Source: Escherichia coli (GTDB taxonomy: Bacteria; Pseudomonadota; Gammaproteobacteria; Enterobacterales; Enterobacteriaceae). From it: 64,000 nucleotides of DNA. Shown piece by piece: positions 9,093-9,456 of the stretch (position 1 is its first letter; each line of letters starts with the position of its first letter). The position numbers and the translations under genes are program-made. The notes under the pieces were generated by a model that had not been told where the DNA came from, did no database searches, and saw only the letters and a list, made by a program, of their open reading frames with translations. The DNA lies in NCBI RefSeq assembly GCF_013122565.1, contig NZ_CP053258.1; one strand, given 5' to 3'.

Positions 9093-9137
9093 AGGGCAAA
9101 GCGGAAACGGATAAGACGGGCATAAATGAAGAAGAAA

Positions 9138-9214
9138 TGGCGCGCCCTGCAGGATTCGAACCTGCGGCCCACGACTTAGAAGGTCGTTGCTCTATCCAAC
9201 TGAGCTAAGGGCGC
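9138..9214 (-). tRNA. argU: tRNA-Arg (anticodon UCU), 77 nt
   Basis: Reverse complement reads GCGCCCTTAGCTCAGTTGGATAGAGCAACGACCTTCTAAGTCGTGGGCCGCAGGTTCGAATCCTGCAGGGCGCGCCA; cloverleaf with anticodon loop CTTCTAA and 3' CCA encoded. Confidence 0.95.
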
Positions 9215-9456
9215 GTTGATACCGCAATGCGGTGTAATCGCGTGAATTATACGGTCAACCCTTGCTGAGTCAATGGCTTTTGATCTGGTTGCTGAACAAG
9301 TGAACGACCGCGTCTGATTTTCTGATTTATTTCGCTATAGCGGCAAACAAATGCACACCGCTGCGCGTCTGAATCAAGAAAACCCGTATTTTCATGTATC
9401 AAAGTACAATTTACCGCCCTAACGGAAAATTGTCCGCTCCTATGAGACTGGTAACT

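Follow-up and report, generated by a model that had tools for sequence, protein, structure and literature searches.

The 64,000-nucleotide stretch of Escherichia coli DNA analyzed here (the window) almost certainly carries, at positions 9136..9182, an unoccupied bacterial attachment site (attB) for lambdoid phages with a tyrosine integrase of the DLP12/IntD type, a site that is presumably competent for integration in this strain. It consists of a single 47-bp core within the 3' part of the tRNA gene argU, which lies directly between the host genes envY and fimZ. The evidence for this empty junction is structural rather than statistical, the 251-bp sequence that spans it being 100% identical in many E. 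coli genomes. Empty argU sites are already known, and nothing reported here exceeds the earlier study in which DLP12 was described as integrating at the argU 3' end, with a 47-bp copy at attR, and in which loci with and without DLP12 were compared across 638 genomes (Ramisetty and Sudhakari, 2019; PMC6379469). The attL and attR sites of DLP12 at argU of K-12 MG1655 are those of Lindsey et al. (1989), as cited in that study (PMC6379469).

Results

The envY-argU-fimZ locus

The argU locus in the window comprises three contiguous genes. envY, encoding an AraC-family regulator (8331..9092, plus strand; a 253-aa ORF with 99.6% amino acid identity to K-12 EnvY), and fimZ (9457..10089, plus strand; 100% amino acid identity to K-12 FimZ) flank an intact tRNA-Arg(UCU) gene on the minus strand (9138..9214) that ARAGORN, Rfam and alignment all identify and that is the same as K-12 argU. 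This is the only tRNA gene that ARAGORN predicts in the whole 64 kb (tRNA-Arg, anticodon TCT), and it was confirmed by the Rfam tRNA model RF00005 with a score of 72.1 bits. RefSeq annotation places envY and fimZ at the same coordinates in collinear strains, and the synteny with K-12 that is maintained on both sides (nfrA-ybcH-envY and fimZ-sfmF) supports the orthology of the two genes. The TGA stop codon of envY occupies positions 9090-9092 and the 3' end of the tRNA is at 9138, such that the convergent spacer between them, delimited by alignment to K-12 attR, is exactly 45 bp long (9093..9137). A first-pass annotation, prepared from the letters of the window, had placed the argU 3' end 45 bp from the envY stop with fimZ on the other side, and it was correct to the base.

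A consensus scan revealed a promoter-like site for argU on the minus strand (9246..9273; TTGACT-16-TATAAT, sigma-70-like, matching 11 of 12 consensus positions). If it functions as such, transcription of argU likely starts a few bases past the -10 hexamer, near 9240. At the other end of the gene, we searched the 45-bp spacer for a terminator-like site or a stable hairpin and found none, and the predicted fold was no better than that of shuffled sequences (z = +1.46).

The junction is the sum of the K-12 attL and attR host arms

To define the att core, we aligned the window junction with the 562.5-588.5 kb region of K-12 MG1655, as the first-pass annotation had proposed for the argU-intD and appY-ompT-envY junctions. 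With the window turned to K-12 orientation, its alignment to K-12 falls into two blocks that overlap by about 50 bp: one runs from fimZ to argU (99.2% identity over 365 bp), and the other, reached after a jump of 21.3 kb in K-12, runs from a displaced argU fragment to envY (99.3% over 286 bp). Base-by-base comparison resolved this overlap into an exact 47-bp direct repeat in K-12, CTTCTAAGTCGTGGGCCGCAGGTTCGAATCCTGCAGGGCGCGCCATT, located at 564755-564801 and at 586057-586103, in agreement with the DLP12 boundaries given by RefSeq (564755-586056). The window holds this repeat as a 47-bp attB core on the minus strand (9136..9182), identical to the DLP12 direct repeat of K-12 and to a phage attP. 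The core spans positions 33-77 of the tRNA (first anticodon-loop base to CCA; ARAGORN numbering) plus 2 nt, and thus overlaps the 3' part of the gene; compared with other tDNA sites of tyrosine integrases (Islander; the Williams sublocation classes), an identity block that starts at the first anticodon-loop base is nothing unusual.

Outside the core, the flanks of the empty site are the outer flanks of attL and attR in the K-12 lysogen: the window junction equals the K-12 attL host arm, one 47-bp core and the K-12 attR host arm except for a single SNP among 175 aligned bases. The sole substitution is an A at position 9130, where K-12 has a G, and it lies in the envY-side arm; the spacer is otherwise the K-12 sequence from attR to envY, and the core takes in the final 2 bp of the spacer (9136-9137). 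The two loci therefore share the tRNA gene, the core and the host flanks, and the window represents the recombinational 'sum' of the two K-12 junctions, but in K-12 the site is occupied by about 21.3 kb of DNA with intD ... appY, ompT, whereas in the window it is empty and differs by the SNP at 9130. The proposal that the window shows the empty state of the argU hotspot is borne out by this alignment. envY is the host gene whose side of attB becomes attR in lysogens, and fimZ is the host gene on the attL side, which keeps the intact tRNA in lysogens.

The site is unoccupied and ompT and appY are absent from the window

No 12-mer of the 47-bp core recurs on either strand in the rest of the 64 kb, indicating that the core is present as a single copy. 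Searches of the window by blastn and tblastn returned no match to DLP12 interior DNA, IntD or OmpT, and AppY matched only the C-terminal HTH domain of EnvY (44% over 96 aa), a similarity between paralogs. Between envY and fimZ we found one core and neither an integrase, a phage gene or remnant nor a duplicated argU 3' segment, any of which would have spoken against the first-pass reading that the interval lacks integrase, phage genes and tRNA 3' duplication; its further statement that ompT and appY are missing holds for the window as well.

One claim of that reading had to be corrected. It located appY and ompT of K-12 between the prophage and envY, but both genes reside inside the element. 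The displaced argU fragment of K-12 (attR, 586057-586103) sits between ompT and envY, just beyond the RefSeq DLP12 element (564755-586056). Together with the position of ompT beside attP in phage 2G7b (see below), this identifies appY and ompT as cargo carried within the element, so that one event accounts both for their absence here and for that of the prophage. We considered a separate deletion of appY and ompT and rejected it, given that both genes lie within the att-bounded element in K-12.

Lambdoid phages carry the matching attP beside their integrase gene

In a search of a phage collection, the 47-bp core used in near mode was the informative query, whereas a 148-bp query in distant mode retrieved mostly phage-encoded tRNA-Arg genes and was uninformative. 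The exact 47-mer (47/47) occurs in 13 Escherichia phage records that represent 11 distinct phages, namely Kati, Turner, 2G7b, ev243 and the PhiR series (from ECOR13, K-12 and E. coli C), and the core is present at 45/47 in two Salmonella phages, SEN22 and BIS08P22 (three records). 2G7b/ev243 (Nesevirus), Kati, Turner and PhiR thus have the exact core in common with the window, but theirs are the phage partner sites, with arms of phage DNA, whereas the window holds the bacterial partner. In the Kati (PP925833.1) and Turner (PP925837.1) records the 47-bp argU-derived attP core is annotated as 'tRNA-Pro', which is likely a mis-annotated tRNA-Arg fragment.

In 2G7b, a free lambdoid phage, the core follows directly after the integrase gene, beginning 13 bp past the int stop, and directly precedes ompT and an alpha/beta hydrolase gene. 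The identity block of the window is therefore also that of the attP of a phage whose int adjoins attP. The 2G7b integrase has 99.5% amino acid identity to K-12 IntD, its OmpT is 98.7% identical to K-12 OmpT, and both arms of its attP are near-perfect matches to the phage-side arms at K-12 attL and attR. As judged by sequence, all four att sites can be assigned, attP in 2G7b, attB in the window and attL and attR in K-12, and together they fit the Campbell model exactly.

The empty junction is the commonest state of the argU locus

We surveyed 5426 complete E. coli genomes, counting matches with at least 80% query coverage. The contiguous envY-argU-fimZ arrangement, queried with 1.8 kb, is present in 2452/5426 genomes, and a 251-bp junction query, for which attL or attR by itself gives incomplete coverage, is present in 2537/5426, with many matches 100% identical. 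argU is followed by a K-12-type intD in 1646/5426 genomes, and the full appY-ompT-attR-envY arrangement was found in 812/5426. The empty junction is accordingly the commonest single state of the argU locus, present in ~45-47% of the genomes (about 2450-2540).

Discussion

Proposed mechanism of integration at argU

The attP core of the phage lies beside int and duplicates 47 bp of the argU 3' segment, and at K-12 attL argU is regenerated intact. We propose that an IntD-type integrase recombines attP with attB inside the identity block; judging from other integrases that target tRNA genes, the strands are probably exchanged at the core's anticodon-loop end. The phage copy of the tRNA 3' segment would rebuild an intact argU at attL, beside fimZ, and so keep the tRNA gene functional, while the displaced host 3' fragment would end up at attR, beside envY. 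Nothing is integrated at argU in this strain, so that envY, argU and fimZ are contiguous, and ompT and appY, which the phage genome carries at its attP-proximal end, are absent along with the prophage. This scheme rests on the established model of tRNA-targeting tyrosine integrases as outlined for Islander (PMC4383910), in which an element that inserts into the 3' part of a tRNA gene brings a replacement copy, the outcome being a regenerated gene and a displaced fragment (PMC4383910).

Occupancy could conceivably have consequences for the neighboring genes. In the empty state the argU 3' end runs through 45 bp that are hairpin-free and terminator-less head-on into envY, whereas in a lysogen it faces phage DNA and int, such that a prophage could alter the 3' processing or termination of this rare-codon tRNA or the antisense read-through into envY; that AGA/AGG decoding or envY expression differs between empty and occupied strains for this reason strikes us as a long shot.

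Never occupied, restored, mis-assembled or degraded

An empty attB could also be secondary, the argU site having once been occupied and then restored by precise Int/Xis-mediated excision. Viable DLP12 relatives with the same attP exist, which makes both gain and clean loss possible, and a filled site is common in E. coli, as is an empty one. Precise excision is scarless, however, and a restored site would read the same as one that was never occupied, and the K-12 element itself has a pseudogenised xisD and cannot easily leave. We regard such a history as unlikely for this strain, though it is the most credible of the alternatives considered here. We also scanned one genome per species with an exact 20-mer over the argU 3' end and the spacer. 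This outgroup scan returned three loci only and no Escherichia outgroup, two of the loci being on unrelated MAG contigs and the third an attR junction. E. coli itself was likely missed because its species representative would have a B2-like locus, as in UPEC 536, which lacks envY by attR. The third locus is a 3.5-kb contig (JAIJJM010000316.1) binned as 'Collinsella sp.', whose first 155 bp share 99.4% identity with the envY-spacer-core attR junction of E. coli; the contig is probably mis-binned E. coli prophage DNA.

Repeat-bounded elements are occasionally mis-assembled, and a prophage between the two 47-bp repeats might have been collapsed out of the assembly. Nothing specific points to this here, a repeat of 47 bp falls far short of the read lengths at which collapse occurs, the same junction is present in >2,400 independently finished genomes (in many of them with 100% identity over 251 bp), and 43.8 kb of the window, including the site, align collinearly with a complete genome, all of which renders an assembly artefact extremely improbable. 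The same can be said of a small degraded remnant hidden in the interval. Such remnants do exist in phylogroup B2, for example in UPEC 536, but in the window every base from envY to fimZ aligns either with the single core or with a host flank of K-12, the spacer measures just 45 bp, and matches to DLP12 or an integrase are lacking, so that the base-by-base alignment to K-12 refutes a remnant. An unoccupied attB thus stands as our reading of the locus, and no feature of the sequence speaks against it.

Comparison with other argU loci and implications for annotation

The envY-argU-fimZ-sfmF order is the same in O157:H7 and many other lineages, with 99.8-99.9% identity over 1.8 kb. O157:H7 TR01 differs from the window beyond nfrB, where it has an ISAs1 transposase and a gene with a zincin-like toxin domain in a region that also contains RHS and VgrG genes, whereas in the window (1-2060) cusS follows directly after nfrB, as in K-12 and PapM-32-1. 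Although the argU junctions are 99.9% identical, the window is therefore not from an O157:H7-type genome. Two genomes are in line with ompT being cargo of the element. O157:H7 strain 8368 has an empty argU site, and its ompT lies ~1 Mb away near minE, past the gpJ, lom and tail-fibre genes at the right-hand end of a different lambdoid prophage. UPEC 536 (phylogroup B2) has the same tRNA and the same core, with ompT retained beside attR in a ~3-kb remnant that extends from argU to attR and consists of int', tfa', a methyltransferase gene and ompT; it differs from the window in lacking envY and the whole sfm-fimZ cluster, the order being folD-argU ... attR-ybcH, which indicates that the flanks of the hotspot themselves vary.

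Other copies of ompT or appY may be located elsewhere in the genome of this strain, as in O157:H7; any such copy must lie outside the argU locus, most probably on another prophage. A useful clarification for work on this locus is that ompT is phage cargo situated by attP, and its presence at argU tracks the prophage rather than a separate deletion. For annotators, this is a strain without DLP12 at argU, in which ompT-carrying lambdoid phages of the 2G7b/ev243 type would find what appears to be an intact landing site. Beyond correct annotation, the significance of the finding is small.

Other features of the window

The best match over 25 kb, the baboon isolate PapM-32-1, reaches 99.0% identity only, and we conclude from this value that complete genomes do not represent the strain closely. 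Over its first 43.8 kb, the window is collinear with PapM-32-1. At 43853-44304, between mnmH (ybbB) and ybbP, it contains an insertion of ~450 bp relative to PapM-32-1 that is bounded by a duplicated terminator-like sequence, 'AAAAAACCGACATGACAG(T/C)(C/T)GGTTT'. The insertion bears an AgrB antisense-RNA match (43825..43913, minus strand; Rfam, 56.5 bits against a gathering score of 40), and a 27-aa ORF within it, MKTFLDKVLIVLKALIALLELIRQFIE (44176..44259, plus strand), matches the NCBIfam DinQ type I toxin equivalog with 40.9 bits against a cut-off of 30. On the strength of these matches, the insertion is predicted to be an extra dinQ/agrB-like type I toxin-antitoxin module. K-12 presumably has its rhsD element at this position (mnmH-ybbP).

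Near cueR, a 1.3-kb segment (55526-56844) has no counterpart in PapM-32-1 and contains one 409-aa ORF (55615..56844, plus strand). The remainder of the window (56845-64000), which encompasses cueR, an HlyD/ABC pair for type I secretion and the first part of a giant SiiEA/BapA-like adhesin gene, is 94.7% identical to PapM-32-1, compared with about 98-99% in the rest of the window, suggesting a recombined or divergent allele block. Finally, the sRNA STnc480 (Rfam RF02068, 85.8 bits) is encoded on the minus strand at 30638..30704, in the allE-glxK intergenic region.
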